Made by a program: the position numbers and the translations under genes. This document shows positions 10,052 through 25,823 of a stretch of DNA of 32,000 nucleotides, in pieces. Position 1 is the first letter of the stretch. The number at the start of each line of letters is the position of its first letter. Location: contig NC_008789.1 in the NCBI RefSeq assembly GCF_000015585.1, positions 1,890,001 through 1,922,000 on the forward strand, read 5' to 3'. Source of the stretch: Halorhodospira halophila SL1. GTDB lineage: Bacteria > Pseudomonadota > Gammaproteobacteria > Nitrococcales > Halorhodospiraceae. The notes beneath the pieces were generated by a model. That model was not told where the DNA came from and did not search any database. It saw only the letters and a program-made list of their open reading frames with translations.

Positions 10052-10432
10052 ATGATCGTCCGCCACATGAAGGACATCATCGGCTCCGACCGCGAGGTCG
10101 AGACCGATGAATTCATCAGCCGCCGGATCATCCTCAAGGAAGACGGGATGGGGTTCTCGTTCCATGAGACCATCATCAAGGCCGGCACCGACATGTTCAT
10201 CTGGTACGCCAACCACCTCGAATCGGTCTACTGCATCTCCGGCAAGGGCGAGATCGAGGTCATCGGCGGCGAGACGTACACCATCGAGCCGGGCATGCTC
10301 TACGGCCTGGACGGCCACGAGAAGCACTACCTGCGTGCCGAGGAAGAATTGCGCCTGATGTGCGTCTTCAATCCGCCGCTGACCGGCCGGGAAGTCCACG
10401 ACGAGAACGGCACCTACCCGCTCCTCGACTGA
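10052..10432 (+). CDS. ectC: L-ectoine synthase
   Basis: Cupin protein with EctC signatures: MIVRHMKDIIGSDREV, GMGFSFHETIIKAGT, WYANHLESVYCISGKGEIE. GAGGT lies 5 nt upstream of the ATG. Confidence 0.95.
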   Translation: MIVRHMKDIIGSDREVETDEFISRRIILKEDGMGFSFHETIIKAGTDMFIWYANHLESVYCISGKGEIEVIGGETYTIEPGMLYGLDGHEKHYLRAEEELRLMCVFNPPLTGREVHDENGTYPLLD

Positions 10433-12072
10433 CCCGCACCCCCTTCTTGCCGTAGCCCCGCCGCCGCCACCTCCGTGGCGGCGCTTCGGGCCCGGCTGCT
10501 CAGGCGCTGGCACTGCGCCAGCTCCTCGCGCACACCGGCCAGTGCAGTACCGCCCGCCCCGGCAACCGCCTCGATGACCTGCCGCGCCAGCTGGCGCTCG
10601 TGGCGCCGGGCCCCCGGCCCGAGCAGGGAGCGCCCCACCCAACCCAGCAGCAGACTGCCGATACTCCCTCCTGCGAGCAGGGCGAAAGGCCAGCTGATGT
10701 CGCCCACCGCTGCCGGTGCGGGCACAGCCGGCAGGGCCAGCCACTCCACCACTCCGCGCACAGCCAGCCAGAGCGCCCCGATCACCGCGGCCGCCTCGCC
10801 CGCCCCGCGGAGCGTACCCAGGCTCCGCCACCAAAAGCGCGGACGCGGCGACCAGGCCAGTTCCCCTAGACGCCCGCGGAGTTCGCCGGCGTGCGGCGCC
10901 GCCGCTGCCGCCGCCAGGTCCCGCAACCGCTCGGCAGCCGGCTCGGGCATCCGCGCCGCAGCCGGTTCGACCGCCTGCAGCAGGCCATCACGCAACACGG
11001 GCTCCGCCACCACCGGGCGCGGCAGGGTCGAGCTGGTACCGGCCATAGCGGCAGAGCGCTTGCGCGCCCCGGAGAACAGCCCGATGGCCATCCGTTTCAA
11101 CGGCGAGCCCAGAGCCCGCGCACCAATCTGGCGATAGGCCCCCGCAGCACCGGTCAGCAGCTCGGTCTCGTTCACCGCCTGGCGCTGGGCGGTCACCAGG
11201 CGCTCACCGTCAAGCTCCAGGCTGCCGGGTTCGGGAAGGCAGGCGGCGGCGCGGACCACCAGTTCGGCCACGTCAGCACGGACCCGCTCCAGCGGGGCGC
11301 GGCGCTCGCGCACCCGGTCCGCGATCCGCTGGGCGAGTGCAGAGACCCCCTCCCCTTCGACCGCGTCGGTGGCCAGCAACTCCACCGCCTGCAGCCCCTG
11401 CCGGCCCAGCAACTCCCGAAGGTGGTCGAGACAGCTCTCTCGGTCGCCTGGATCCAGGCGATCGGCGTGGTTCAGCGCCACCATCAACACCTCGGTGTGG
11501 TGGGCCAGGCGGGCAAAATACCCCTCATGGGCCAGGGCGTGGGCGTACTTGACCGGATCGACGACCCACAGCAGCAGATCGCAGCGCTCGATCAGTCGCT
11601 CGGCCACCTCCCAGTGGGCCTGCACCACCGAGTCGATATCGGGCAGATCCAGGATCACCGCCCCGGCCAGACCACCGCGCCCACCGCTGGCCGGTACGCT
11701 GCGCCGTTCGAAGACCTGCAGCCAGTCGAGCAGCCCGGCGGCCCCGTCCTCCTCGCCCACGGTGACCGCCACCGCATGGTCCGTGGTCGGCCGGCGCACC
11801 CCGGGGGCGGAGACCTCTTCGCCGACCAGGGCATTGACCAGCGAAGATTTGCCGCTACCGGTCCCTCCGGCCACGGCGATAACGACGTGCTCCCGCGACT
11901 GGGCCAGGCGTTCACGGGCACGGCGCTGGAGCTGCGCCATCTCCTCGATCAGCGCCGGCGACAGACGGCCGACACCGAGCGTCTGGAGCGTCTGCAGGGC
12001 GTCCAGGCCGGTGTCGCCGGCGGCGCTCGGCGCACGCGTCGGCGCCTCGGCACTTGCTCCCGCCCAGCGCAT
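10414..12072 (-). CDS. membrane-anchored P-loop GTPase, dynamin-like/HSR1-type (paralog B)
   Basis: G1 GGTGSGKSS (nt 11871-11842), G3-like DLPDIDS, G4-like NHAD. A long Ala/Arg/Leu-rich helical region follows, then two hydrophobic segments near the C-terminus (AAAVIGALWLAVRGVVEWLALPAV, ISWPFALLAGGSIGSLLLGWVG). ATG 12072 shares one base with the upstream stop (TGATG). Confidence 0.75.
   Translation of the reverse strand: MRWAGASAEAPTRAPSAAGDTGLDALQTLQTLGVGRLSPALIEEMAQLQRRARERLAQSREHVVIAVAGGTGSGKSSLVNALVGEEVSAPGVRRPTTDHAVAVTVGEEDGAAGLLDWLQVFERRSVPASGGRGGLAGAVILDLPDIDSVVQAHWEVAERLIERCDLLLWVVDPVKYAHALAHEGYFARLAHHTEVLMVALNHADRLDPGDRESCLDHLRELLGRQGLQAVELLATDAVEGEGVSALAQRIADRVRERRAPLERVRADVAELVVRAAACLPEPGSLELDGERLVTAQRQAVNETELLTGAAGAYRQIGARALGSPLKRMAIGLFSGARKRSAAMAGTSSTLPRPVVAEPVLRDGLLQAVEPAAARMPEPAAERLRDLAAAAAAPHAGELRGRLGELAWSPRPRFWWRSLGTLRGAGEAAAVIGALWLAVRGVVEWLALPAVPAPAAVGDISWPFALLAGGSIGSLLLGWVGRSLLGPGARRHERQLARQVIEAVAGAGGTALAGVREELAQCQRLSSRARSAATEVAAAGLRQEGGAGQSRSG
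10462..10483 (+). terminator. possible ectC 3' stem-loop embedded in the convergent gene
   Basis: cgccgccac (10462-10470), loop ctcc, gtggcggcg (10475-10483): a 9 bp stem 30 nt after the ectC stop. No T-tract. It lies inside the coding 3' end of the minus-strand GTPase gene. Confidence 0.25.
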
Positions 12073-13778
12073 CAGACCAGGGCCTCCAGCGCATCCCGAC
12101 GAGCCTGCACGGCGCTCACCGCCTCCGGGGACGGGGCCGCCGCCGTCAATAACCGGTGGTAGGCCTGCGCCTCGGACTCCGCCAGGGCGGCCACCCGGGC
12201 GTGGAGATCCGCGCGGATATCGGTGATGAGCTGATGGACATTGCGCTCACCGAGGATCCGCGAGAGGACTGTATGGGTGGTGGTGGAACCGGCAGCGGTC
12301 AGCGCCAGCTCGCCGGTGCTCAACCCGCCACTGAGGGTGAAGAGGACCAGCACGGCGCTGGTGAAGGTGGCGTTGATCCCCGTGGTCGCACGGCGTGCCC
12401 AACTGAGCTTGGCCCGCCCGATGGTAGCGACGTGTTCGGCAACCTGCTGCTCCCAGGCCGCCACCAGCGCCTCGGCGTCGGCACGGCGCGCAATGGCCGC
12501 GGTTGACCGCGGCCGCGGATAGCGGGCGAAGATCCCCCGCCCGACCGGATCCTGCTGCCACGCACTCTCTACGCCGGCGGCGGCCTGGTCGAGGACGGCG
12601 TGCAGCATCTCGGCGATGCCAGCCCGCGCCTCCTCCTTGGCCTCCTGCTCGACCTGCCGACCACCGCGAGGGAGCGGCAGCCATCCCAGCCAGCGCCGCG
12701 GCGAGAGCTGCCCCACCGCGGCGTGCAGCTGACGCTGCAGCCAGCCACTCCCGACCAGCTCGGTCCAGCGGCGGAGCACCTCACGGCGCAGGGGCTCGCC
12801 CTCCTGGAGCTGGGTCAGCAAGCGCTCGGGGACATCGGTGTAGCCTTCATCGATGACGGCAGCCAGCCTGCGGGCCGCGGTCCGCTCCGCCTCGACGGCC
12901 TCGAGCAGGGCATCGACCTCTGCCGGCAGGTAACGCACTGCGCCGAGCACCGTTCGGCGCCGGTGGGCAGCACGCTGGTCCGCCGGCGCCAGGGCACGGA
13001 TCCGCTCGAGCACCGGCGCCGCTGCCGAATCGGGCAGGCGCTCGTCAGAGACCGGCGCCGTGGGCAGGTGCGTCGTCTCGACTGCCCGATGGCCGGCCGC
13101 ATCCAGCTTCTCGGCCAGGTCGGGGAGGATCTCCCGCGCCTCGGCCTCGGTCGCCTGGGTGAGCACGACCAGCGTCGAGACGTCCAGCTGGGCCGCCTGG
13201 CGCAGATAGGCCATACCCGCCTCGTCGGCGTAGGTGCGGGCGGTCGCCAGCCAGACCCAGACATCGGCCACCTCCAGCAGACGCTCGGTGGCGGCACGAT
13301 TGGCGGTCTCGACGCTGTCCACATCCGGCGCATCCACCACCACCACCCCCTCCGGTACCGTCTCCAGAGGGGCCGTACGCAGGGCGGCGCGCTCGGCCTC
13401 GGCCGCCAATACCCCACGGCGCAGGACTGTATCCAGGTCCGCCGCTCGGCCGATGACCGTAGGCACCGAGGTGGTGGGGCGGCGCGCGCTGGTCGCGGCG
13501 ACCGCAGACCCCGCCAGGGTGTTGGCCAGCGTCGATTTCCCGGCCCCCGTGCCGCCGGCAAACACCACCAGAAGCGGCTCATCCTGGCGCTCCAGCCGAG
13601 CGATGAGGCCATCGATGCGGCGCAGCAGGCGCTCCCAGGGGAGCAGCCAGGGGGCATCGCGATCCCGAGCGGCCTCGCCATCGAGGCCATGCAGGTCCTG
13701 GCGGAGTTCGGTGAGGGTCTGCTGGAGCTCTTCGCGGTCCATCACGACAAGATACAGGGAAACCCCGCCGGTGATCAC
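12072..13778 (-). CDS. membrane-associated P-loop GTPase, dynamin-like/HSR1-type (paralog A)
   Basis: G1 GGTGAGKST (nt 13559-13530), G3-like DAPDVDS, and TQAT at the G4 position (13160-13149). Helical region, then a hydrophobic segment INATFTSAVLVLFTLSGGLSTGELALTAAG. The start is GTG 13778 or ATG 13742 (MDREELQQ); neither has a strong SD. Confidence 0.75.
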   Translation of the reverse strand: MITGGVSLYLVVMDREELQQTLTELRQDLHGLDGEAARDRDAPWLLPWERLLRRIDGLIARLERQDEPLLVVFAGGTGAGKSTLANTLAGSAVAATSARRPTTSVPTVIGRAADLDTVLRRGVLAAEAERAALRTAPLETVPEGVVVVDAPDVDSVETANRAATERLLEVADVWVWLATARTYADEAGMAYLRQAAQLDVSTLVVLTQATEAEAREILPDLAEKLDAAGHRAVETTHLPTAPVSDERLPDSAAAPVLERIRALAPADQRAAHRRRTVLGAVRYLPAEVDALLEAVEAERTAARRLAAVIDEGYTDVPERLLTQLQEGEPLRREVLRRWTELVGSGWLQRQLHAAVGQLSPRRWLGWLPLPRGGRQVEQEAKEEARAGIAEMLHAVLDQAAAGVESAWQQDPVGRGIFARYPRPRSTAAIARRADAEALVAAWEQQVAEHVATIGRAKLSWARRATTGINATFTSAVLVLFTLSGGLSTGELALTAAGSTTTHTVLSRILGERNVHQLITDIRADLHARVAALAESEAQAYHRLLTAAAPSPEAVSAVQARRDALEALV

Positions 13779-13827
13779 GTGCCCGGTGCACGATCGGTGT
13801 CACAGGGCCGGGACGGCACCCGAGCGG

Positions 13828-15540
13828 CTAGTCCGTCTTTTCCAGGTCCACGGCAATGGGATCGTGGTCCGAAGAGCGATAGGCATCCTCCCGAACGCGA
13901 CCGGGATCACCGTCGAACTCCAGGAAACGGGGCTCGTCGGCATTGATGGGGTGCCGGTGGACCGCGGCCACCCGCTCCGCCAGCGCCGGGTGGGCCTGAA
14001 GGTGATCGAGATAGCCCGACTCGCCCCGAAAGACGTAGGTATACCGGTCGGGCCAGGCGAGGTGTTCGGCGAGCAGATCCACCTTGCCCGCTGCGGCGAG
14101 GGCGCGGGCCGGATCCTCGCCACCGTAGGCGTTGAGATCACCGGCGATGAGCACCGGTAACGCCTCGCTGCGCTCCGCACGCCAGCGGCCGAGGAACTCG
14201 GCCAGGGCCTCGGCCTGTTCGGTGCGACGGTGGTTCCAGCACCCCTGGCCACGATCGACATCCCCGGCATCCGGACACCGCGTCTTCGACTTGAAGTGGA
14301 TCCCGGCCACAGCGAAAGGCTCCCCGCCACCCTGCGGACGAAAACCGACCAGCGGCGGCGGACGATGATGGACCCGCCGGGCATCGCGCACCGTCTCGGT
14401 CACCGGCTGCACGCGGTCCTCGCGGTAGGCCAGAGAGACCTTGATGGCGTCGCTCCCGGTTTCACCCCCGCGGGCCAACCGCCAGGGGTGGCCGGTGCTC
14501 GCCGCTAGGCGCTCCACAAAGTCTTCCGGGGCGTCCTGGCGATTCTCCATCTCGACCAATACCAGCACGTCAGCGTGCAGGGACTCGGCAGCAGCGAGCA
14601 GCTTGGCCCGCTGGCGCTCCAGTTCCACCTCGCTGGCCGCACCTCGCTCGCCGAGGGTCAGGAAGTAGTTCTCAACGTTGAAGGCGGCCACGCGCACCGT
14701 CCCCGCCTCCGGTGGCGGCAACGCTTCCGGCCGCGGGTTGGAGGCTTCGAAATCCGGCGGCTCGGTCGGGTGCAGCCGCCAGGCGCCGAAGGCGTGGGTC
14801 AGCACGCCGGTCAGGTCCGCCACGCGGCTCCCCACCCGACGGGTTCCGTCGTCGTCGAGGTAGGGAATGGGATCGGGCCGCCCCCGGTAGCTGCCATCAT
14901 CCAGCCGCAGCCGGGCTCCAGACAGGGTCGGATCCTCGGGGCCGTCGCCCGGCAGAAAATTGGTCGGCCGAAAGGCGCGCCGCTCTGGGGTGAGCTTCAG
15001 GGTGCCGTAGCGCGGCAGCTCGTAGGTACCGCTGACCACCATCGGCTGCCGGATACGCACCAGCACGCCCTCCAGGCGCTCGGGGGCGGCCGCCGGCCAG
15101 TCCAGCGGATACGGGGTGACCTGCTTGGCACCGCAGTCCTGAACGGCCTCCAGCCACTCGAGCTGCGGTCGCCCCCGGTGCTCACCGGCGCGCCCGGTGA
15201 GCAGGAGCTGACGACCAGGCTCGATCCGCTCGCGCTGCTCGGCGGTCAGCTCCGGGGCGTAGACGAACAGCCCGGCGGGCTTGCCATCCGGCGCCGGCCC
15301 GGTACCCTGGATGAAGAAGCCATCCAGCCCCTCCGCTCCGAGGAAGGCGGCGGTGACCACCCCGTTCACCCGGACCGGATCCTCCGGGGCCTGGCGCCCC
15401 ACACCCTGCCCGGCCAGTTCATGGACCGCGGTGGTCTCCGCTGAGGCGCACGGTTTGGAAGCGACCGCCGCGCCCCCCGCCAGTACCAGCACGGCCCCCC
15501 AGGCGGCCAACACCAGGACTCTGGATACCGATGCGATCAC
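13828..15540 (-). CDS. ExeM/NucH-family extracellular endonuclease (EEP fold), secreted
   Basis: EEP motifs VRVAAFNVENYF, DVLVLVEMEN and SDHDP. The N-terminal domain pattern (VNGVVTAAF..GFFIQ..GLFVY) is typical of ExeM/NucH. The track ORF (to 15657) overlaps the RND gene. I place the start at GTG 15540, preceded by GGGAGGAG, which gives the signal peptide (M)IASVSRVLVLAAWGAVLVLAGGAAVASKPCASA. Confidence 0.85.
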   Translation of the reverse strand: MIASVSRVLVLAAWGAVLVLAGGAAVASKPCASAETTAVHELAGQGVGRQAPEDPVRVNGVVTAAFLGAEGLDGFFIQGTGPAPDGKPAGLFVYAPELTAEQRERIEPGRQLLLTGRAGEHRGRPQLEWLEAVQDCGAKQVTPYPLDWPAAAPERLEGVLVRIRQPMVVSGTYELPRYGTLKLTPERRAFRPTNFLPGDGPEDPTLSGARLRLDDGSYRGRPDPIPYLDDDGTRRVGSRVADLTGVLTHAFGAWRLHPTEPPDFEASNPRPEALPPPEAGTVRVAAFNVENYFLTLGERGAASEVELERQRAKLLAAAESLHADVLVLVEMENRQDAPEDFVERLAASTGHPWRLARGGETGSDAIKVSLAYREDRVQPVTETVRDARRVHHRPPPLVGFRPQGGGEPFAVAGIHFKSKTRCPDAGDVDRGQGCWNHRRTEQAEALAEFLGRWRAERSEALPVLIAGDLNAYGGEDPARALAAAGKVDLLAEHLAWPDRYTYVFRGESGYLDHLQAHPALAERVAAVHRHPINADEPRFLEFDGDPGRVREDAYRSSDHDPIAVDLEKTD

Positions 15541-15559
15541 GGCAGACTCCTCCCTGAGT

Positions 15560-18500
15560 TCAGACCCTGCCTCGAGGCGGACCCGAGGCGTGCTCCAGGC
15601 GCTCCAATTCGGCTCCGACCACGTTGACCGGCGTGGTATACCGCGCCAGCCAATCATAAAGCACCGGGATGACGAACAGCGTCAGCAGGGTAGCGAATCC
15701 CATCCCGCCGATGATCACCGTACCGATGGCAGCCCGGCTCTCCGCCCCGGCACCCAGGGCCAGGACCAGGGGGACCGCCCCGAAGACCGTGGAGACGGCG
15801 GTCATCAACACCGGGCGGAAGCGCAGGGCGGCCCCGGCGTGGATCGCCTCGCGCACGGTGTAGCCCTGGTCCCGGAGCTGATTGGCGAACTCGACGATCA
15901 GGATCCCGTTCTTGGTCATCAGGCCGATGAGCAGGATCATACCGATCTGGCTGTAGAGGTTCAGGCTGCCGCCGCTGAGCAGGAGCGCGCCGAGGGCGCC
16001 GGTAATGGCCAGGGGCACGGCGGTCATGATGATCAGCGGGTGGATGAAGCTCTCGAACTGCGCCGAGAGCACCAGGAAGACGATCAGCAGGGCCAGGCCG
16101 AAGGTGAGGAACACAGCGCCGCCGGCGCGCTTGAACTCATCCGACAGCCCCAGGTAGCTGACCCGCGCCGTCGCCGGCAACTCCTCGGCAGCCACCTGCT
16201 CGAGATAGGCCAGGGCCGCGCCCAGGTCATAGCCCGGCGCCAGCGACGCGGTGAGCGTCACCGCAGGCAAGCGGTCGACGCGACTGAGCACCGGAGGCGC
16301 CCCCTCCTCCTCCAGCGTCACCAGGGCCGAGAGCGGGATCAGTGCCCCGTCATTGAGGCTGCGCACGTGCAGGCGATCGAGGTCGGCGGGGTAGCGCCGG
16401 TCGCCGGCCTCGGCCTGCAGCATGACGTCGTACTCCCGGCCCCGATCCAGGTAGGCCGTCACGGTGCGCGACGCCAGTAGGGTCTGCACGGTACGCCCCA
16501 GCGCCTCGGCACTGACCCCGAGGTCGGCGGCCCGATCCCGGTCGATCCGCACGTTCAGCTGCGGACGCGTTGCGTCGTAGCTGCTGTCGAGATTGAGCAG
16601 CCGCGGGTTGTCGGCCCGGGCCCGATCCAGCACCCGCTCGGCCCAATCGGCCACCTCGTGGTAATCGGTGCCGCCGATGACGAACTGCACCGGTTGCTGG
16701 AAACCGCTCTGGCCGAGCCCTGGCGGGTTCACAGCGAAGGCACGCACACCGGGCACAGTCATCAGCCGAGGCATGGTCTCGGCGACGATCTGCTGTTGGC
16801 TACGCGAGCGCTCCGCCCAGTCCTCCAAGCCGACAATGATGAAGGCGCTGTTGGCGCGCCCACCAAAACCGAGGATGGTCAGCACGCGACGGGCCTCGCC
16901 GGTGTCCTCGCGCAGGGGGCGCAGAATCGCCTCCAGCTCGCGCACACTCGCGTCCGTGTGCGCCGCGGTGCTGCCCTCCGGCGCGCTGGCCGGGACGATG
17001 AACACCCCGCGATCCTCGGTGGGGATCAGCTCCTGAGGCAGTGCCTGGTACAGGGCGTAGGCGCCCACGGCGGCGGCCACCCCGACGCCGAGCACGGCGA
17101 TGGGCATCCCCAGGGCGCGACCGAGCAGGCGGCGGTAGCCGAGTGTCAGACCGGTCAAGACGCGTTCGGTGGCCACCTGCAGCCGCCCCGGGTGCTCCGC
17201 GCGAGGGCGCAGCCACTTGGAGCAGAGCATGCCGGTCAGGGTCAGGGCGACGAAGCTGGAGAAGACCACCGCCGCCGCCAGCACCAGCCCGAACTCAGTG
17301 AACAGCCGCCCCACATTGCCCTCCATGAAGGCGATGGGCACGAAGACTGCTACCAGGGAGATGGTGGTGGCGATGACCGCGAACCCCACCTGCCGCACGC
17401 CGCGGTAGGCCGCCAGCAAGGGCGGCTCGCCCTCATCGATGCGCCGCTGGATGTTCTCCAGCACCACGATGGCGTCGTCGACCACCAGCCCGATGGCCAG
17501 GATCAGGGCCAGCAGCGTCAGCACATTCAGTGAGAACCCCAGGGGAGCCATGACGGTGAAGGCACCAATCACCGCCACCGGGATGGTCACCGAAGGGATC
17601 AGGGTCGCCCGCAGGCTGCGGAGGAAGATGAAGATGGTCAGGACCACGAGAGCCACGGCGATCAGCAGGGTGCGCACAACCTCGCGGATCGACTGACGCA
17701 CGAACTGCGATTCATCGTAACCGACGACCAGGCGCAGATCGCCGGGCAGCTGCTCCTCGATCCGCGCCATCTCCTCGAGTACGGCATCGGCAACGGCGAT
17801 GGTGTTGGCACGGGACTGCCGGATGACGCCCAGGCCTACGGCGGTCTCACCGTTCAGGCGCACGGCGGTGTCGTCGTCTTCGACGCCCCGCTCCACTCGC
17901 GCCACTTCCTCCAGACGGACCAGCTCGTCACCGCGGCGCTCGATTACCAGCCGGGCGAACGCGTCGCGGTCGCGCAATCGAGTGTCGGTCCGCACGGTCA
18001 GCTGCCGGGCGGTCGACTCGATCTCGCCGGCAGGCAACTCGATATTCTCGCGGCGCAGGGCGTTCTCCACGTCCTCGACGGTTAGATCACGGGCCGCCAG
18101 GGCGTCACTGTCGAGCCAGACGCGCATGGCGTAGCGGCGCTCGCCACCAATGCGCACCCGCGCCACACCGTCAAGCACCGAGAGACGATCGACCAGTTGT
18201 CGATCGGCGTAGTCGGTCATCTCCTCGGGGGTCATCCGGCTGCTGCTTAGCGACAACCACATCATCGGCCGGGCATCGGCCTCGGTCTTGGCGACGACCG
18301 GCGGGTCGGCATCCACCGGCAAGTCATCGAGGATCCGCCCGATGGCGTCGCGCACATCGTTGGCCGCAGCGTCGATATCCCGCCCCAGCTCGAATTCGAT
18401 GTTCGTCTCCCCCCGCCCGTCGCGGCTCTCCGAGGTCATCGAACGGATGCCGTCGACGCTGCTCACTGCCGACTCGATCCGCTCGGTGATCTCGGTGTCG

Positions 18501-18676
18501 ATCACCGCCGGGGCGGCACCGGTATAGCGGGTCTCGATGGAGACCAGCGGGGGATCGATGTCGGGGTACTCGCGTACCGGCAACTGAGCGAGGGAGGCGA
18601 TGCCGAGGACGACGATCAACACGCTGGCCACGGTGGCCAGGACGGGACGACGGATCGCAATGTCGGAGAGGATCAA
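15560..18676 (-). CDS. RND efflux transporter permease (AcrB/HAE1-like)
   Basis: 1038 aa with the typical N-terminus IRRPVLATV..LPVREYPDIDPP, 12-TM topology and two large periplasmic loops. The TTG start at 18676 overlaps the adaptor stop (TTGA). Confidence 0.93.
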   Translation of the reverse strand: MILSDIAIRRPVLATVASVLIVVLGIASLAQLPVREYPDIDPPLVSIETRYTGAAPAVIDTEITERIESAVSSVDGIRSMTSESRDGRGETNIEFELGRDIDAAANDVRDAIGRILDDLPVDADPPVVAKTEADARPMMWLSLSSSRMTPEEMTDYADRQLVDRLSVLDGVARVRIGGERRYAMRVWLDSDALAARDLTVEDVENALRRENIELPAGEIESTARQLTVRTDTRLRDRDAFARLVIERRGDELVRLEEVARVERGVEDDDTAVRLNGETAVGLGVIRQSRANTIAVADAVLEEMARIEEQLPGDLRLVVGYDESQFVRQSIREVVRTLLIAVALVVLTIFIFLRSLRATLIPSVTIPVAVIGAFTVMAPLGFSLNVLTLLALILAIGLVVDDAIVVLENIQRRIDEGEPPLLAAYRGVRQVGFAVIATTISLVAVFVPIAFMEGNVGRLFTEFGLVLAAAVVFSSFVALTLTGMLCSKWLRPRAEHPGRLQVATERVLTGLTLGYRRLLGRALGMPIAVLGVGVAAAVGAYALYQALPQELIPTEDRGVFIVPASAPEGSTAAHTDASVRELEAILRPLREDTGEARRVLTILGFGGRANSAFIIVGLEDWAERSRSQQQIVAETMPRLMTVPGVRAFAVNPPGLGQSGFQQPVQFVIGGTDYHEVADWAERVLDRARADNPRLLNLDSSYDATRPQLNVRIDRDRAADLGVSAEALGRTVQTLLASRTVTAYLDRGREYDVMLQAEAGDRRYPADLDRLHVRSLNDGALIPLSALVTLEEEGAPPVLSRVDRLPAVTLTASLAPGYDLGAALAYLEQVAAEELPATARVSYLGLSDEFKRAGGAVFLTFGLALLIVFLVLSAQFESFIHPLIIMTAVPLAITGALGALLLSGGSLNLYSQIGMILLIGLMTKNGILIVEFANQLRDQGYTVREAIHAGAALRFRPVLMTAVSTVFGAVPLVLALGAGAESRAAIGTVIIGGMGFATLLTLFVIPVLYDWLARYTTPVNVVGAELERLEHASGPPRGRV

Positions 18677-19773
18677 CGGGCCGCCTCGGCCAAGCCACTG
18701 CCATTCGCCGCATCACCGGCCGGACGGTTACGTACCCGGACCCGGGTGCCGTCACTCAGACGCTGGTGGCCCAGGGCGACCACCCGATCCGCGGGCTCGA
18801 GTCCGGCGCTGATCTCCACCCGGCCGTTCTGACGCTGCCCGATCTCCACATCCACCTGCCGGGCGACACCGTCGGTGATGCGGTAGACGTAGCGTCGGGG
18901 CCCGTCGAGGATCAGAGCCTCTTCCGGGATGACAACGGCCTGGCGGCGATCGAGTTCCAGCTCCACCTGCAGGAACATCCCGGGTTTGAGGCGGCCGTCC
19001 CGGTTGTCGATCTCGGACTCCAGGCGCAGGGTCCGGGTCACCGGATCGATCCGGCTGTCGATCCGGTGCAGTACCCCGGAGAAACGGTGCTCGGGAAATC
19101 CGGCACTGCCGGCCGTCACCGCCAGGCCGGTCTCGAGTCGCCCGAGCAGGCGCTCGGGAACGGTAAAGACAAGCCGCAGGATCTCGGTATCATCCAGGGT
19201 GGTCACCACGGTCTGCGGGTCGACGTAGGCACCGAGGCTCAGCCCGCGCATACCGACCACGCCCGCGAAAGGGGCGTGAATGCGGCGCTCGCGGAGTTGG
19301 ACCTCGGCCACCCGGACCTGGGCACTGGCCACGGCGACAGCAGCTGCCAGGGTGTCCACATCCTGCTCGGTGACATCCCCGGTCTCCCGCAAGGTACGAG
19401 CGCGACGCAGCTGTGCCTGCACATCCTCTAGGTGGGCCCGGGCCTCCTCCAGGGCCGCCCGCTCGCGCTCGGCGTCGAGCTCAAGCAGGATCTGCCCGGC
19501 TTCCACTGCCGCGCCTTCCTCGAAACCGATGGCGGTGATCCGGCCCGCCGTTTCGGTCACCACATCCAAGGCCTCCCGGGCACGGGCGGTTCCCGTCGCC
19601 CGGAAGGTGTCCCGGATCACGGCCCGCTCGGCATCGGCGGCCTCCACCACCACTTCGCGCCCTGCGGGGGGACCTGCCTGGGACGCCGGCTCGCCGCGGG
19701 TCAGCCAATAACCGCCGAAAGCCACCCCGGCAATCAGCAGGGCAGCGAAGAGGATCTGGTAAGCGGGACGCAT
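18673..19773 (-). CDS. RND efflux periplasmic adaptor (membrane fusion protein)
   Basis: N-terminal TM anchor, coiled-coil hairpin (ERERAALEEARAHLEDVQAQLRRA) and barrel-domain motifs (RIHAPFAGVVG). ATG 19773 is preceded by AGGAG. Confidence 0.9.
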   Translation of the reverse strand: MRPAYQILFAALLIAGVAFGGYWLTRGEPASQAGPPAGREVVVEAADAERAVIRDTFRATGTARAREALDVVTETAGRITAIGFEEGAAVEAGQILLELDAERERAALEEARAHLEDVQAQLRRARTLRETGDVTEQDVDTLAAAVAVASAQVRVAEVQLRERRIHAPFAGVVGMRGLSLGAYVDPQTVVTTLDDTEILRLVFTVPERLLGRLETGLAVTAGSAGFPEHRFSGVLHRIDSRIDPVTRTLRLESEIDNRDGRLKPGMFLQVELELDRRQAVVIPEEALILDGPRRYVYRITDGVARQVDVEIGQRQNGRVEISAGLEPADRVVALGHQRLSDGTRVRVRNRPAGDAANGSGLAEAAR

Positions 19774-19823
19774 GGTGACTCCTGGCCGGGGCCGTGGATG
19801 GCCACGGCTATATTAGCCGCCCC

Positions 19824-22064
19824 TTATGTGCCGCGCCATACGCGCTCCACCCGCTCACTGGATGAAAGCTTGGCCATCAACCGCGAGAGCTGCTGGACGT
19901 CACTGACCTGCACGTCGATATCGATGCGGTAGGCGTCCGCCGGCTCCGCATGGGTCTGTACCCCATCCAGGCGTACCCCTTCGTGGCCACAAAGGCGGGT
20001 GATCTCGCTCAACGGCCCGTCCAGCACGCCGGTACGGACGTGGATGCGCACCGGGTACCGACCGGCAGGGGCCGTACGCCAGTTGACGTCGAGCAGACGC
20101 TCTGGCTCGCGCTCACGCAGCTGCTCGACGTTGCGGCAATCCTGGCGGTGGATCGTTACCCCCGCCCCCCGGGTAATGAACCCGATAATCGGATCCCCCG
20201 GGGCCGGACTGCAGCAACGGGCCATGCGAGTCAACAGGTTGCCGACCCCCTCCACGGTGATATCGCCGTCGCCACCGGGTTTCTCGGTAGCGCGGGGCCG
20301 CTCGGGCGCAGAGGCGGGTTCGGGCTGCTGGGGCAGCAACCGGTCGCGCAACAGGGCTGCGATCTGCCCGGGGGTCACCTCGCCGCGACCCAGGGCCGAG
20401 AGGAACAGCTCCACCCGGGTATAGCGGCTGCGCCGGACCACCTCTTCGGTGCTGACGTCCTCCAGACCTAGACGGCGCAACTCCTTGTCCAGGGCCTGGC
20501 GGCCGGCGGCCACGTTCTTGTCGTGATCGCGCTGACGGAACCAGGTGCGCACCTTGGTGCGGGCCCGGTTGGTGTAGAGATAGCCCAGCTCCGGATTGAT
20601 CCAGTCGCGGCTCGGTCGCTCCTCGCGGCTGGTCAGGATCTCGACTCGATCCCCGTTGTCCAGGGCACGGGTCAGCGGCGCGATCCGGTTATTGATCTTG
20701 GCCCCGCGGCAGCGGTGCCCGAGGCCGGTATGGATGTGATAAGCAAAATCCAGCGCTGTCGCCCCGCGCGGCAGATCGATCACGTCGCCGCCGGGAGTCA
20801 GGGCGTAGACCCGATCGGCGAAGACCTCGGCACGGACACGATCGACGAAATCCCCCTCGTCGTCTTCATCCTCTCGCCCCCACTCTAGGATCTGACGCAG
20901 CCAGGCGATCTTCTGCTCGAATTCGGCATCCTGCTTGCCGCCCTCCTTGTAGCGCCAGTGGGCGGCAATGCCCAGCTCGGCCTCGGCGTGCATCTCGTGG
21001 GTACGGATCTGCACCTCCACCGCTTTGCCCTCGGGGCCGGCCACCGCGGTATGCAGCGAACGGTAGTTGTTCTCCTTGGGGGTTGCGATGTAGTCATCGA
21101 ACTCCCGCGGGATCGGCGTCCACAGGCCGTGGACGATCCCCAGGGCGGCGTAGCAGGTGCGCTCGTCATCGACGAGGATGCGCACTGCGCGCAGATCGTA
21201 GAGATCGTCGAAACGCAGCCCCTTGCGCTGCATCTTCCGATAGATGCTGTAGATGTGCTTGGGACGTCCGTAGACCTCGGCCTTGAGGCCGGCCTCGTCC
21301 ATGGCCGCCTGCAGCTGGCTGCAGACCTGCTCGATATAGGCCTCGCGGTCGCGCCGGCGCTCGGCCAGGCGTTTGGCCAGATCCATGTAGGCCTCGGGCT
21401 CCAGATGCCGAAAAGCCAGGTCTTCCAGCTCCCACTTGAGCTGCCAGATCCCCAACCGGTTGGCCAAGGGTGCATAGATATCCCGGGTCTCGCGGGCCAG
21501 GCGCATGCGCCCCTCCTCGTCGAGACCTCGACAGCTGCGCAGATCGTGCAACCGCTCGGCCAGGGCGATGAACACCACGCGGACGTCGCGGGCCATAGCC
21601 AGCAGCATCTTGCGCAGCCCCTCGACCCGCTCCCCCTGGATCGCTGCCTCCAGCTCGGCCGAATCGCGGAACCGACCAATGCCGTGCATACGGCACACCC
21701 CCTGGGCGAGCTCGGCGATATCACCTCCCAGGTGCTTGCGCAGACCGGCGATGGAGCCTTCCTGCAGCTCCGGCAGATCGTGGATCAGCGCCGCCGCCAG
21801 GGTCGCGGCGTCCAGACCCAGCTCGGCCAGGATGGTGGCGGTGTAGACGGCGTGGGCGAAATACGGCTCGCCCGAGTCGCGCAGCCGCTCACCGTAGCCG
21901 GCCCGTGCGCGCTCCCAGGCCTGCTCGAGCAGTGCACGGTCGGCGTCACTGACCGACACCGGCAGGCGATGCAGCCACACTGCGGGCTCCAGGGCGGTGA
22001 CGTCGTCGATATCGGCTAGGGCGGACTGGACCATGGGCCTCGGGGGTTCAAGTTGAGGGTTCAC
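19824..22064 (-). CDS. relA: RelA/SpoT-family (p)ppGpp synthetase, probably GTP pyrophosphokinase
   Basis: Synthetase blocks YGRPKHIYSIYRKM and YRSLHTAV, TGS and ACT regions. The track start is GTG 22064; ATG 22034 (MVQSAL) is an alternative. A relA versus spoT call cannot be made firmly by eye. Confidence 0.88.
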   Translation of the reverse strand: MNPQLEPPRPMVQSALADIDDVTALEPAVWLHRLPVSVSDADRALLEQAWERARAGYGERLRDSGEPYFAHAVYTATILAELGLDAATLAAALIHDLPELQEGSIAGLRKHLGGDIAELAQGVCRMHGIGRFRDSAELEAAIQGERVEGLRKMLLAMARDVRVVFIALAERLHDLRSCRGLDEEGRMRLARETRDIYAPLANRLGIWQLKWELEDLAFRHLEPEAYMDLAKRLAERRRDREAYIEQVCSQLQAAMDEAGLKAEVYGRPKHIYSIYRKMQRKGLRFDDLYDLRAVRILVDDERTCYAALGIVHGLWTPIPREFDDYIATPKENNYRSLHTAVAGPEGKAVEVQIRTHEMHAEAELGIAAHWRYKEGGKQDAEFEQKIAWLRQILEWGREDEDDEGDFVDRVRAEVFADRVYALTPGGDVIDLPRGATALDFAYHIHTGLGHRCRGAKINNRIAPLTRALDNGDRVEILTSREERPSRDWINPELGYLYTNRARTKVRTWFRQRDHDKNVAAGRQALDKELRRLGLEDVSTEEVVRRSRYTRVELFLSALGRGEVTPGQIAALLRDRLLPQQPEPASAPERPRATEKPGGDGDITVEGVGNLLTRMARCCSPAPGDPIIGFITRGAGVTIHRQDCRNVEQLREREPERLLDVNWRTAPAGRYPVRIHVRTGVLDGPLSEITRLCGHEGVRLDGVQTHAEPADAYRIDIDVQVSDVQQLSRLMAKLSSSERVERVWRGT

Positions 22065-22161: not shown

Positions 22162-22203
22162 CCACTGTTGTACATAATACCATCTGTGTATATAGTACTA
22201 CCC
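22162..22203 (+). promoter_or_regulatory. lexA promoter with tandem CTGT-containing operator repeats
   Basis: Two 19-nt-periodic repeats, CCA-CTGTTGTACATAATAC (22162-22180) and CCATCTGT-GTATATAGTAC (22180-22198). TTGTAC (22168-22173), a 17 nt spacer and TATAGT (22191-22196) form a plausible promoter ending 7 nt before the lexA ATG. Confidence 0.55.
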
Positions 22204-22884
22204 ATGGATACTCTTACAGACCGCCAACGCGAAATCCTCGAGCTCATCCGCCGTTCGGTGGCCGAACGGGGATACCCCCCCACTCGCGCCGAGATCTGCC
22301 AAAGCCTCGGCTTCCGTTCACCGAACGCTGCCGAATCCCACCTCCGGGCGCTCGCCCGCAAGGGGGCCATCGAGATGCGGCGCGGCGCCTCGCGGGGCAT
22401 CCGCCTGACCGATGCCTTCGCCGGGGCCGCCCCCGAGCCCTCGCCGGCAACCGACGACCCGAACGCTGGACTGCCGGTGGTCGGGCGGGTGGCCGCCGGC
22501 AGTCCCCTGCTGGCCGAGGAAAGCATCGAGCGCTACTGCCAGGTCGACGCTTCACTATTCTCCCCACCGGCCGATTACCTACTGCGTGTGCGCGGTGAAA
22601 GCATGCGCGATGCCGGCATCCTGGACGGGGATCTGCTCGCCGTCCGCCGCGACACCGAGGCACGGGACGGGCAGATCGTGGTGGTTCGCCTCCACGACGA
22701 GGTGACCGTCAAGTTCCTGGAGCGCTGCAATGGCGTCCTGCGGCTGATTCCCGCCCATCCGGACTACCCGGTCATCGAGGTGGCGGCGGACGGCCAGGAT
22801 GCCGTACTCGAGGGCATCGGCGTGGGCGTACTGCGTAGCCCGCTCGATCCCAGAGGCCCGGAAGGTAACGCGGCATCCGACTGA
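22204..22884 (+). CDS. lexA: LexA repressor
   Basis: [56 protein letters not shown] closely parallels E. coli LexA. The C-terminal S24 peptidase has GESM and [10 protein letters not shown]. Start at ATG 22204 (residue M13 of the track ORF). Confidence 0.95.
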
Positions 22885-22896
22885 GGAGGCGCAACC

Positions 22897-23733
22897 GTGA
22901 GCGAAGCTGCCCTGCAACCGCTGCTGGACGATCCGCGCATCTGGCGCCCCGGCCGCCGGACCGAAACCGCCCGGCACGCCGCCCTGGGTACCGGCTATCC
23001 GGAGCTGGATGCTGCCCTGCCCGATGGTGGCTGGCCGCTGGGCACCGTCACCGAGATCTTCCACCAGCAGCCCGCCATCGGCGAACTCCAGCTGATCCTG
23101 CCCTCCCTGGCAGCACTGAGCCGACGCAGACAGTGGCTGGCCCTGGTCGCTCCCCCCTACATCCCCTACGCTCCCGGGCTGGCCCACGCCGGCGTGGACC
23201 TCTCGCGGGTCTTGCTCATCCACCCCCGAGCCCACGAGGACCACCTCTGGGCCATCGAGCAGGCCCTGCGGAGCGGGACCTGCGGTGCGGTGGTGGGCTG
23301 GCCCCGGCAGGCCGACCGGACCACCCTGCGCCGGCTGCAGCTGGCCGCCGAGACCGGTGGTAGCTGGGCCGCACTGTTTCGTCCGCACAGCGCACGGCAC
23401 CAGGCCTCCACGGCGGCGATCCGCCTGGCCCTGCAACCGGAGGAAGACGCCACCCTTGGCATCGACCTGCTCAAATGCCGAGGCGGGCAACCGCGCCGGC
23501 TGCAGCTTCGCCCGGGGGAGGCCGTACACCCGGCGACCGACGCCCCCGCCGCCACGACCTCGCCGTACCCGGCCCCCCGTGCCGCGGGTGCCACCGGGAC
23601 GGCTGAACCGCCCCTTCAGGAGGCCCCGTACGGCGATCGCGCCCGCCAGGCTGCGCCACCTCCCCGCGGCCGACCGCGGCGGCAGGCGCCCCGCTCCCGG
23701 CGGGCCGCAGGGCAGCTACCCCTCCCTCTGTAG
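22897..23733 (+). CDS. imuA: ImuA / SulA-like translesion-synthesis accessory protein
   Basis: RecA/SulA-like core (GYPELDAALPDGGWPLGTVTEI, GELQLILPSLA, WLALVAPPY), positioned between lexA and imuB. GTG 22897 has GAGGAGG 6 nt upstream and lies 12 nt after the lexA stop. It carries a long Pro/Ala/Arg-rich tail. Confidence 0.8.
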   Translation: MSEAALQPLLDDPRIWRPGRRTETARHAALGTGYPELDAALPDGGWPLGTVTEIFHQQPAIGELQLILPSLAALSRRRQWLALVAPPYIPYAPGLAHAGVDLSRVLLIHPRAHEDHLWAIEQALRSGTCGAVVGWPRQADRTTLRRLQLAAETGGSWAALFRPHSARHQASTAAIRLALQPEEDATLGIDLLKCRGGQPRRLQLRPGEAVHPATDAPAATTSPYPAPRAAGATGTAEPPLQEAPYGDRARQAAPPPRGRPRRQAPRSRRAAGQLPLPL

Positions 23734-23770
23734 CGCTGGTAGCGCGCCCACGCTGCGACCGACCACCACC

Positions 23771-25069
23771 ATGCCGGAGCCACAGACCAGCCCGTTGTGG
23801 CTCGCCGTCCACCTGCCTACGCTCACCGCCGAGGCTCCCTCGGCCTCGGCGGCCCCCACCCTGGAGCAGATCGCCCTATGGGGGCTGGAACTCACCCATC
23901 AGGCGAGCCTCGAGCCCCCGGACACCGTCTTCCTCGAGGTCGGCGGCAGCCAGCGCCTGTTCGGCGGCCGGGCCGCGATCCAGCAGCGCGCCCAAGAGGG
24001 CCTGCGCGAATTGGGCCAACCCCGGGCCGCACTGGCCGCTGCCCCCACCCCGCAAGGCGCCCGACTGCTCGCCCGGGCCAGCCCCGGGATCTGGCTCACC
24101 GACCGCCAGTCGCTCCGCCGCGCGCTGATGCCCCTACCGTGCCACCTCCTCGATCCGACACCGGCCCAGCAGTCCGCACTGAGCACCTTGGGCCTGACGC
24201 GGTTGGGCGATTGCCTGCGCATGCCCCGCAGCGGTCTGCGCCGCCGCATCGGCGACCCCCCTATCCGCACCCTGGAGCAGGCCCTCGGCGAGCGCCCCGA
24301 GCCGCGCCGCTGCATCCCACCACCCCAGCGCTACCGTGGTCGCCTGGAACTCCCGGCCCCGACCGCAGCCACTCAGGCAACCGGCTTCGCCCTGCAGCGC
24401 CTGCTGCGCGCCCTAGTCGGCATGCTTCGCGGCCTCGATGCCGGGATCCAGCAGGCCGCGGTCGCCCTGGAGCACCCGGATGGTCCGGATACGCGGCTGA
24501 CCCTGGGCTTCCTGCGTCCGACCCGCGACCTGGAGCACATGGCCCACATCGCCCGCCACCGGCTGGAACGCCAGGCACTCCCCGATGTGGCCACCGCCGT
24601 CCGTCTCGAGGCGGATCAACTCCTGCCCTACCAAGGGACCAGCGGCGACCTCTTCGAGCGTACGGGCGCCGATGGCGAAGCCGTGCGCACCCTCAGCGAG
24701 CGACTCATCGCCCGCTTGGGGGCCGATTGCGTCCAACGCCTGGCTACCTACCCCGACCCACGTCCGGAGCGTGCCTGGTGCCGCCTACCGTTGGAACACC
24801 CGGACCGGCCCCCCGCCGCAACGCTGCCGCGGCCGGTCTGGCTCTTGCCACACCCGCGGCGTCTACTCAGCGGCGAGGGCGGAGAACCGCACTGGGGCGG
24901 CCCGCTGTGCCTGGAAGCGGGTCCGGAACGGATCGAAAGCGGCTGGTGGGACGACGAGGACGTGGCCCGCGATTACTACGTCGCGCGCGCCCCGGTCGGC
25001 AGCCGGCTCTGGGTCTATCGCGACCGTCGCCCGCCCTACGGTTGGCACCTGCACGGCTTCTTTGCCTGA
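23771..25069 (+). CDS. imuB: ImuB, Y-family DNA polymerase-like protein
   Basis: The N-terminus PLWLAVHLPTL..LE..ALW and the overall layout are typical of ImuB. It follows imuA. ATG 23771 is the only nearby in-frame start. No obvious SD. Confidence 0.8.
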   Translation: MPEPQTSPLWLAVHLPTLTAEAPSASAAPTLEQIALWGLELTHQASLEPPDTVFLEVGGSQRLFGGRAAIQQRAQEGLRELGQPRAALAAAPTPQGARLLARASPGIWLTDRQSLRRALMPLPCHLLDPTPAQQSALSTLGLTRLGDCLRMPRSGLRRRIGDPPIRTLEQALGERPEPRRCIPPPQRYRGRLELPAPTAATQATGFALQRLLRALVGMLRGLDAGIQQAAVALEHPDGPDTRLTLGFLRPTRDLEHMAHIARHRLERQALPDVATAVRLEADQLLPYQGTSGDLFERTGADGEAVRTLSERLIARLGADCVQRLATYPDPRPERAWCRLPLEHPDRPPAATLPRPVWLLPHPRRLLSGEGGEPHWGGPLCLEAGPERIESGWWDDEDVARDYYVARAPVGSRLWVYRDRRPPYGWHLHGFFA

Positions 25070-25074
25070 ACCGC

Positions 25075-25725
25075 TCAGGGCACCCCGGTGACGATCTCCA
25101 CCCCGGCCGCCTGCAGCGTCCGCTGCACCGAGGCGTCGTTGCTGGCATCCACAGGACGGGTCAGATCCCACAGGAAGTGCACCCCGAAGCCCGCCTGGGC
25201 CCCGTCCTCCGCGCTCCACAGTGCGCAGTAGTCCCTCGCCAGGCCGCAGACGTAGAGCTGCTCGACACCGAGTTCGCGCAGGTAGCCGGTCAGACCCGTC
25301 GACGGCCGCCGTCCATCCGGGGCGAAGTTCTCGCGGAACGCGCTGTACGAGTCGACCAGCGGATCGGTGGCCTTACGCAGGATGAGGTCTGCATGGCGCC
25401 ATGGGACCCCGTCGTGCAGGGCTGCACCGCGGGTCTCCTGGACACAGTGATCGGGCCAGAGCACCTGGTCGACGCCGTGGAGCTCGATCACCTCGAAGGG
25501 GGAACACCCTGGATGGCTGGAGGCAAAGGAGATGTGCCCCGGTGGGTGCCAGTCCTGGGTCGCCACCACGTAGCGGCTGGGCGCCCGCTCCAGCAGGCGG
25601 GCAATGGGGGGGACCACTTCGTCGCCGCCCTGGGTCGGCAACGCACCGCCGGGCATAAAGTCCGGCTGGACGTCGACGACGAGCAACGCGGCGTGCTCCG
25701 CGTCTCTTAGCTTGGCTTCAACCAC
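25075..25725 (-). CDS. pncA: nicotinamidase/pyrazinamidase
   Basis: ALLVVDVQPDFMPGGAL, ATQDWHPPGHISFA and VCGLARDYC (catalytic Cys) are isochorismatase/PncA motifs. The track start is GTG 25752. I prefer GTG 25725, which has GGGAGG 5 nt upstream. Confidence 0.85.
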   Translation of the reverse strand: MVEAKLRDAEHAALLVVDVQPDFMPGGALPTQGGDEVVPPIARLLERAPSRYVVATQDWHPPGHISFASSHPGCSPFEVIELHGVDQVLWPDHCVQETRGAALHDGVPWRHADLILRKATDPLVDSYSAFRENFAPDGRRPSTGLTGYLRELGVEQLYVCGLARDYCALWSAEDGAQAGFGVHFLWDLTRPVDASNDASVQRTLQAAGVEIVTGVP

Positions 25726-25823
25726 CGCAACCTCCCGACGATCGGTCGGCACCCCCTTCAGGGTAGCCGCCGCGGCGCCGGCAGCAAGCCGACACCGCAG
25801 CGATTGCAGTGGTCCGGCGGCCG

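Follow-up and report, generated by a model that had tools for sequence, protein, structure and literature searches.

Comparison with relatives suggests that a co-directional run of efflux pump, nuclease and dynamin-like GTPase genes in Halorhodospira halophila SL1 consists of independent modules

Resistance-nodulation-division (RND) pumps are exporters of small molecules, and many RND pairs have no outer-membrane gene linked to them, the classic example being AcrAB, whose partner TolC is encoded elsewhere; to our knowledge, RND pumps do not export folded proteins. Among nucleases, the described relatives closest to the one considered here are ExeM of Shewanella oneidensis and NucH of Aeromonas, and the bulk of ExeM was located to the cytoplasmic membrane fraction rather than to the medium (PMC6085458). 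Bacterial dynamin-like proteins (DLPs) are mostly paired in operons (PMC6104087), and in Streptomyces DynB is membrane-anchored by two transmembrane segments with DynA as its partner (PMC8748795). Here, a 32,000-nt stretch of the Halorhodospira halophila SL1 genome (the window) was analyzed, in which genes resembling all three kinds of system follow each other in one direction on the minus strand at 10414-19773. Neither a report of an RND-nuclease module nor an H. halophila transcriptome was found in the literature.

The run consists of the genes for an RND periplasmic adaptor (membrane fusion protein, MFP; 18673-19773), an HAE1-type RND permease (15560-18676), a short-form nuclease of the ExeM/NucH family (13828-15540) and two dynamin-like GTPases, GTPase A (12072-13742, 556 aa from ATG 13742) and GTPase B (10414-12072). 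These five identities had been proposed in a preliminary description of the locus and are upheld by profile matches, the two GTPases being of dynamin fold. The same description had left two explanations side by side, a functional module within one transcription unit or coincidental packing. The uncoupling of the components in relatives and a promoter-like element inside the run argue against the module and for packing, with the MFP, RND and nuclease genes plausibly on one transcript. Our preferred interpretation, with a probability of about 0.7, is that the five genes are three independent modules lying end to end on a conserved backbone (relA ... ectABC-tsaB-znu). Every component belongs to a known kind, and the arrangement most probably reflects ordinary packing of genes, not a novel machine. 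The transcription units are probably MFP-RND-nuclease and GTPase A-GTPase B.

Gene order in relatives

For Halorhodospira, gene contexts were obtained by exact-protein look-ups. The order relA-MFP-RND-nuclease-GTPase A-GTPase B facing ectCBA was found in two metagenome-assembled genomes (MAGs) of H. halophila (L083 and L084) and in the metagenomic locus L088 (65% GTPase A identity), and the five-gene order was seen only in this H. halophila lineage. In H. halochloris (L081) and H. abdelmalekii (L086), the order is relA-nuclease-GTPase A-GTPase B, without MFP or RND genes. Alkalilimnicola ehrlichii (L093) carries MFP-RND-nuclease beside ect, tsaB and znu genes and without the GTPases, its nuclease being 55% and its RND permease 72% identical to those of the window, and the nuclease alone was found in Thiohalorhabdus (L094) and Halomonas sp. 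ML-15 (L175). The GTPase pair alone stands in unrelated contexts in L087 (72% identity) and L089 (46% identity), and L092 also has the pair without an ExeM-like nuclease.

A genome-wide scan with GTPase profiles gave an actinobacterial set of 80 loci among the matches listed. In this set, GTPase A is followed by GTPase B in 80/80 loci and an MFP or RND gene is present in 0/80; a single locus has an ExeM-like match, 9 kb off and on the other strand. In addition, 80 metagenomic nuclease loci (32-54% identity) were inspected. The GTPase pair was absent from all 56 with at least 2 kb of downstream sequence, and an adjacent RND gene from all 49 with at least 3 kb upstream, an MFP-RND pair lying 6 kb away in two related contigs. 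Across genomes, the pump, the nuclease and the GTPase pair are therefore separable, and each occurs without the other two. This survey of relatives, which the preliminary description had recommended, shows that the five-gene order is not conserved beyond the H. halophila lineage and that each component pair is uncoupled elsewhere.

The Alkalilimnicola locus, in which MFP, RND and nuclease genes also stand together and no outer-membrane factor gene was found, bears on the possibility that pump and nuclease are a co-selected and co-transcribed pair, for example in a co-regulated envelope or biofilm response, and that the GTPases are later and unrelated. The short spacer of 19 nt with a Shine-Dalgarno sequence between permease and nuclease in H. 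halophila would suit such a pair, and so would the two marine contigs mentioned above. However, the pump was lost and the nuclease kept in H. halochloris and H. abdelmalekii, and no RND gene lies beside the nuclease in Halomonas, in Thiohalorhabdus or in any of the 49 informative metagenome loci. Alkalilimnicola shares the ect/tsaB/znu backbone, so that the adjacency there is not an independent observation, and a co-selected pump and nuclease are considered doubtful. In the two marine metagenome contigs (L120 77-3882 and L140 25-4028), the permease of the MFP-RND pair is 58-59% identical to that of the window, and the pair, co-directional with the ExeM-like gene, lies 6 kb upstream of it; in L120, long open reading frames (ORFs) occur on both strands between them.

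The neighbors of the GTPase pair differ among its carriers. In 25 of 75 actinobacterial loci (L002-L077), an SSB-like gene lies 100-220 nt downstream of GTPase B and is followed by an EttA-type ABC-F gene, both co-directional with the pair; leuCD, gltX and a gene resembling that for Xaa-Pro aminopeptidase also recur nearby, and the actinobacterial pair sits in a core-genome, housekeeping neighborhood. Two Egicoccus loci (L090 8259-9077 and L091 11069-11899) have a cytoplasmic-looking EEP-family gene of 272-276 aa at the end of the GTPase pair or 1.8 kb beyond it; in one genome the 272-aa gene and GTPase B overlap at the end of the latter, and in the other the counterpart is nearby. The Egicoccus EEP protein has no detectable kinship with the H. 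halophila nuclease beyond the superfamily (E 0.21) and no counterpart in the 89 other loci compared. In the MAG contig L087 (10001-13296), the pair is closer to that of the window (72% identity) than is the pair of H. halochloris (59%), and it is surrounded by genes for CsbD, a BCCT transporter, a cation ATPase and DUF389, without a nuclease. This pair has either changed its location or passed between halophilic purple bacteria.

It might also be supposed that the nuclease and the dynamin-like pair are linked and that the pump is a bystander, with the GTPases acting on membranes, for example, when DNA is taken up or degraded or when the nuclease is released. Such a link would account for the order nuclease-GTPase A-GTPase B being shared by five Halorhodospira lineages, the most distant at 59% identity, for the gap of only about 32 nt in L088, and for the DNA-related neighbors found elsewhere, namely the Egicoccus EEP-family gene and the actinobacterial SSB-like gene. 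The same five lineages, however, have the wider relA/ect synteny in common. An ExeM-like nuclease is missing from 79 of the 80 actinobacterial loci and from L087, L089 and L092, the nuclease is without the GTPases in every non-Halorhodospira locus examined, and the Egicoccus protein is unrelated beyond its superfamily. Since the nuclease-GTPase adjacency, the Egicoccus gene and the SSB-like gene are each explicable by gene order inherited within a clade, a linkage with the pump as bystander is regarded as unlikely, and a real functional link between nuclease and GTPases is judged slightly less probable still. The same low probability is given to a working unit in Halorhodospira made of the nuclease and an actinobacterial-type DLP pair, in which the GTPases would remodel the inner membrane so that a nuclease bound to the envelope is set free or put in place, or would serve DNA uptake. 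More generally, such a unit would mean a DLP family with a DNA-related role, of which the Egicoccus EEP gene and the SSB-like gene would be hints.

Junctions and the element before GTPase A

The gene junctions agree with those given in the preliminary description. The MFP and RND genes overlap by 4 nt (cccgTTGAtc, a TTG start over a TGA stop), and the gene calls of relatives agree with this. The RND stop TGA (15562-15560) is separated from the nuclease GTG at 15540 by a spacer of 19 nt (15541-15559, minus strand) with the strong Shine-Dalgarno sequence GGGAGGAG at 15554-15547. This spacer is nearly identical in the H. halophila MAGs L083 and L084, and the corresponding gap is 74 nt in L088 (by gene calls) and 55 nt in Alkalilimnicola. 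From the nuclease stop TAG (13830-13828), GTPase A is 49 nt away if it starts at GTG 13778 and 85 nt away if it starts at ATG 13742, and GTPase A and GTPase B overlap by 1 nt (gtcTGATGcgc), as against 1-4 nt in relatives. A simple scan found neither a sigma-70 site nor a terminator at any junction.

The 50-nt gap between relA and MFP contains the sequence GCTAATATA (19809-19817, minus strand), which does not vary among the window, L083 and L088, with the gap around it diverging. Within it lies TAATAT (19815-19810), a candidate -10 element for the MFP-RND(-nuclease) transcript, followed by the Shine-Dalgarno sequence CCAGGAGT, which is also invariant in the three lineages. The 19-nt spacer further downstream leaves no room for a promoter, and in H. 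halophila MFP, RND and nuclease are plausibly transcribed together.

The gap between nuclease and GTPase A (13743-13827, minus strand, 85 nt) holds a conserved promoter-like element. In the deposited annotation, GTPase A starts at GTG 13778 (568 aa), which adds 12 unconserved residues. ATG 13742 (MDREELQ...) aligns with the GTPase A starts in four other lineages, and this alignment together with the conserved upstream element marks ATG 13742 as the real start of GTPase A (556 aa). In the window, the element consists of a -35 hexamer TGATCA (13777-13772), a 17-nt spacer, a -10 hexamer TATCTT (13754-13749) and 6 nt to ATG 13742. All five Halorhodospira lineages (the window, L083, L088, L086 and L081) have a TGAnCA-like hexamer, about 17 nt, TATCTT or TATGGT, 6-7 nt and ATG, and the context of the -10 (TAnnnT) is TGTATCTT or TGTATGGT in them. 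The rest of the gap, which ranges from about 32 nt (L088) to about 200 nt, is unalignable among the lineages. The motif occurs once in the window, and no Shine-Dalgarno sequence precedes GTPase A in any of the five lineages.

The geometry of this element fits a sigma-70-type promoter with transcription starting at the start codon, which would give a leaderless GTPase mRNA. Because of the conservation and the spacing, we infer both a promoter and a leaderless start; the pair would thus have its own promoter in the gap, with transcription starting at or next to the ATG. In H. halochloris (L081 9790-9955), an inverted repeat with 57-nt arms that are 89% complementary, followed by TTTTT, lies between the nuclease stop and the element, and the gap has a predicted folding energy of -144 kcal/mol. 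This inverted repeat with its T-run looks like a terminator. The arm segment tested has no other exact copy in the loci compared; L082 starts inside the far arm and contains only its tail.

No such structure stood out in the corresponding gap of the window. Its fold is not more stable than those of shuffled sequences (z-score 0.17), and since the simple scan for terminators also came up empty at the junctions, a terminator was rejected here, in line with the preliminary description, which had seen no convincing one. An SOS box was also considered, because the conserved CTGTAT ahead of GTPase A looks like one half of a LexA box and the lexA gene is close by, and was rejected, as no ACAG stands at the required spacing (CTGT-N8-GTGA). 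An RNA element in the gap was dismissed as well, as Rfam gave no match to the whole window at gathering scores and none to 13600-13950 at E up to 1. The preliminary description had named independent promoters or terminators at the junctions as what would speak against a single unit. For the nuclease-GTPase A junction, comparison points to both, through the element in five lineages and the H. halochloris hairpin with its T-run, and no hairpin stands out in this gap of the window itself.

The bearing of these junctions is greatest on the reading that all five genes form one operon, an envelope or extracellular-DNA module in which pump, nuclease and GTPases cooperate, for example in vesicle-associated nuclease release. 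Close spacing with two overlapping stop/start pairs and the 19-nt spacer, the missing hairpin in the 85-nt gap, and the identical five-gene order in the H. halophila MAGs and in the lineage of 65% identity are all what such an operon would show. Set against them are the uncoupling of every component pair in relatives and the promoter-like element conserved before GTPase A, with the hairpin and T-run at this place in H. halochloris. Moreover, RND pumps move small molecules and the nuclease has a putative Sec-type signal of its own, so that no mechanistic dependence of one on the other would be needed. A cooperating five-gene operon is accordingly held to be very improbable.

Several observations weigh against independent modules and were considered together. 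Without a hairpin in the window's gap, read-through from the nuclease gene and a five- or six-gene transcript are quite possible, and the promoters are consensus-level assignments that the sigma-70 scan did not flag. In all five Halorhodospira lineages with the shared backbone, down to 59% identity, the GTPase pair adjoins the nuclease, and in two genera the nuclease adjoins the RND gene; selection, in addition to inherited order, could lie behind either arrangement. The GTPase codon usage is host-like (GC3, the G+C content at third codon positions, 0.84-0.85), and a compositional trace of transfer was rejected for all five genes, whose GC3 and codon usage are host-like. In addition, the GTPase-profile scan returned only Actinobacteria among the matches listed, so other proteobacterial carriers of the pair could be missed. 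For the nuclease-GTPase adjacency, the wider relA/ect synteny shared by the five lineages makes inherited order a sufficient explanation.

Pump, nuclease and dynamin-like pair

Like the tripartite HAE1 systems AcrAB-TolC and MdtABC, the H. halophila pump combines a full-length AcrB-type permease with a cognate adaptor, the two being encoded together by genes that here overlap by 4 nt. The permease matched ACR_tran (Pfam) with E 1e-298 over profile positions 2-1018 of 1021, and the adaptor matched RND_mfp (TIGR01730) with 256 bits (cutoff 95) as well as HlyD_D23. With RND_permease_2 the permease reached 1124 bits, below the NCBIfam subfamily cutoff of 1250, and its substrate therefore cannot be named. 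In contrast to AcrAB-TolC and MdtABC, no outer-membrane factor was found in the locus of Alkalilimnicola or among the window ORFs scanned, the majority of the large ORFs being covered. The preliminary description had likewise seen none with the RND pair, and such a lack is usual in pairs of the AcrAB type. A 456-aa gene upstream of the Alkalilimnicola pump was considered as an outer-membrane factor and is not one. The remark that the nuclease occupies the position where an outer-membrane factor might be expected was an over-reading, since RND pairs often have no such gene linked to them. The pair would export small molecules, presumably through an outer-membrane channel encoded elsewhere.

The nuclease matched ExeM_NucH_DNase (NF033681) with 415.7 bits (cutoff 300; E 3e-124) over profile positions 1-545 of 546, and its EEP catalytic domain (PF03372, E 9e-12) covers residues 327-598 of the 609-aa ORF. 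The product of 570 aa from GTG 15540 matches the NCBI-annotated protein from end to end at 100% identity, and GTPase A and GTPase B are each likewise 100% identical to annotated H. halophila proteins. The N-terminus MIASVSRVLVLAAWGAVLVLAGGAAVA/SK (residues 1-28) is hydrophobic on the Kyte-Doolittle scale and ends in AVA/S, and is signal-like by hydropathy alone. An EEP domain and the match to the family model are shared with ExeM and NucH, and the signal-like segment may be the counterpart of their N-terminal export signal. The H. halophila protein differs from ExeM in being a short form of 570 aa. The full-length ExeM model NF033680 (GlyGly-CTERM, 884 positions) was not matched (96.6 bits, cutoff 1300), and the nuclease would therefore lack the C-terminal anchor of ExeM. 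A sequence search of solved structures gave nothing useful for it.

Orthologues of the nuclease are found in halophilic and alkaliphilic Gammaproteobacteria at 50-58% identity. The protein is predicted to cross the inner membrane by Sec and is probably transcribed with the pump from the candidate promoter in the relA-MFP gap. Because ExeM was recovered in the membrane fraction (PMC6085458), the term secreted is not assured for the H. halophila nuclease, which, like ExeM, may stay associated with the envelope instead of being released into the medium.

By sequence alone, the dynamin-likeness of the two GTPases is not convincing. Dynamin_N was matched with 42.5 and 36.4 bits (gathering cutoff 27), the matches being confined to the P-loop part of the profile (positions 1-45 and 1-38 of 168), and a sequence comparison with solved structures, DLPs included, gave no match. 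AlphaFold2 models were built on family alignments and compared with the PDB by Foldseek. The models are confident, with pLDDT scores of 79.8 for GTPase A and 86.5 for GTPase B. The best matches of GTPase A were BDLP, Cj-DLP1/2, IniA and LeoA, and those of GTPase B were Cj-DLP1/2, BDLP and IniA. Both lists were led by the dynamin superfamily, mitofusins and dynamin among them, with E down to 2e-9 and probability 1.0; the TM-scores were low (0.2-0.45), as expected for hinged proteins. In the models, a GTPase domain is followed by a helical neck/trunk bundle, the architecture of dynamins, and the two GTPases as modeled have a dynamin-like fold.

The two GTPase genes stand side by side, as do those of DynA/DynB, Cj-DLP1/DLP2 and IniA/IniC, and their products of about 550 aa have, like these, an N-terminal GTPase domain and a long helical bundle. 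The H. halophila pair differs from these known DLP pairs in its missing sequence match to solved DLPs, in its P-loop-only Pfam match and in its G3 motif. GTPase B has a hydrophobic helical hairpin near the C-terminus (about residues 421-484, by hydropathy and AlphaFold2) and GTPase A has none. The same division of labor is known from Streptomyces DynB and DynA, only the second H. halophila protein having a clear hydrophobic hairpin. The likeness to DynA/DynB is one of architecture, orthology not being established from the literature, and in the models the hairpin is the only hint of membrane binding or remodeling. The pair would be translationally coupled and would act on the cytoplasmic membrane.

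Of the nucleotide-binding motifs, both proteins have an invariant G1 (GxxGxGKS). In place of the DxxG expected for G3 they have D-x-P-D (D149, P151 and D152 in GTPase A; D142, P144 and D145 in GTPase B), which is family-invariant; the longer motif D-x-P-D-x-D-S (residues 149-155 and 142-148, respectively) is invariant in alignments that reach Actinobacteria. A G4 motif N-x-x-D is present in GTPase B (N201, D204), and none is evident in GTPase A, with no obvious N/TKxD. Judging from these motifs, nucleotide specificity and hydrolysis may be unusual.

A role as a defense system of the Eleos type (LeoA/LeoBC), which has a pair of dynamin-like GTPases in common with the locus, was rejected. The PADLOC matches to LeoA/LeoBC are weak (E 1e-4 to 8e-7) and partial, covering residues 14-237 at most, that is, at most the N-terminal third. 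Unlike Eleos, the actinobacterial pair lies beside gltX, ettA and leuCD, in a housekeeping neighborhood and not in defense islands, and was not found on plasmids.

Flanking genes, history and significance

Upstream, the run is preceded at 50 nt by the co-directional relA (GTP diphosphokinase; 19824-22064, minus strand; Pfam HD_4, RelA_SpoT, TGS and ACT_4; NCBIfam PRK10872, E 2e-213), which was not counted in the claimed module. At the other end, the limit of the run is marked by the end of ectC (10052-10432, plus strand; Ectoine_synth, E 9e-59), the last gene of the convergent ectABC operon. The 3' ends of ectC and GTPase B overlap by 19 nt (10414-10432) without a terminator between them, and the convergent gap is 10-110 nt in relatives; the ect operon is under osmotic regulation, and its convergent transcription could disturb that of the GTPase genes. 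About 70% of the window genes are on the minus strand, so that five genes in a row on this strand are not unusual, and the minus strand is G-rich throughout.

Between pnp and relA, a plus-strand lexA and a SulA/ImuA-like gene are found in the window (22168-25750), and in H. halochloris and H. abdelmalekii relA follows pnp directly. The region from 23.8 to 25.7 kb of the window has 73-75% G+C and two long ORFs without a Pfam match and with poor GC3 contrast.

Outside Halorhodospira, the homologues of GTPase A and GTPase B are those of Egicoccus/Nitriliruptoria (about 40% identity) and other Actinobacteria (about 30%), among the matches listed. These actinobacterial nearest relatives suggest an old horizontal transfer of the pair into the Halorhodospira lineage. 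The donor would probably be a haloalkaliphilic actinobacterium, and the pair would have been inserted downstream of the nuclease. Carriage of the pair by a mobile element was considered and rejected, the sole match in the plasmid collection being an 11.85-Mb Nonomuraea record. The nuclease and the pump look native, given the gammaproteobacterial orthologues of the former and the permease identity with Alkalilimnicola.

The MFP-RND-nuclease adjacency would be older than the arrival of the GTPases, being common to Alkalilimnicola, with the pump lost in the H. halochloris/H. abdelmalekii branch. Since Alkalilimnicola has the same order on the same backbone, ancestral adjacency followed by pump loss is the simplest history. 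We infer the direction of these gains and losses, as well as the horizontal origin, from the comparison of the loci.

If the nuclease and the GTPase pair did cooperate, bacterial dynamins would gain a rare concrete partner, which is unlikely on present evidence. Under the preferred interpretation of three independent modules, the cluster is of minor importance in itself and illustrates how closely packed genes of one orientation can pass for an operon and yet resolve into independent modules once relatives are compared. The analysis has two by-products. One is a widely conserved actinobacterial dynamin-like pair, uncharacterized as far as we found and with a non-canonical G3, that appears to have crossed into a purple sulfur gammaproteobacterium. 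The other is the promoter geometry conserved before the pair, from which a leaderless mRNA is predicted, a feature that would be unusual in Gammaproteobacteria.

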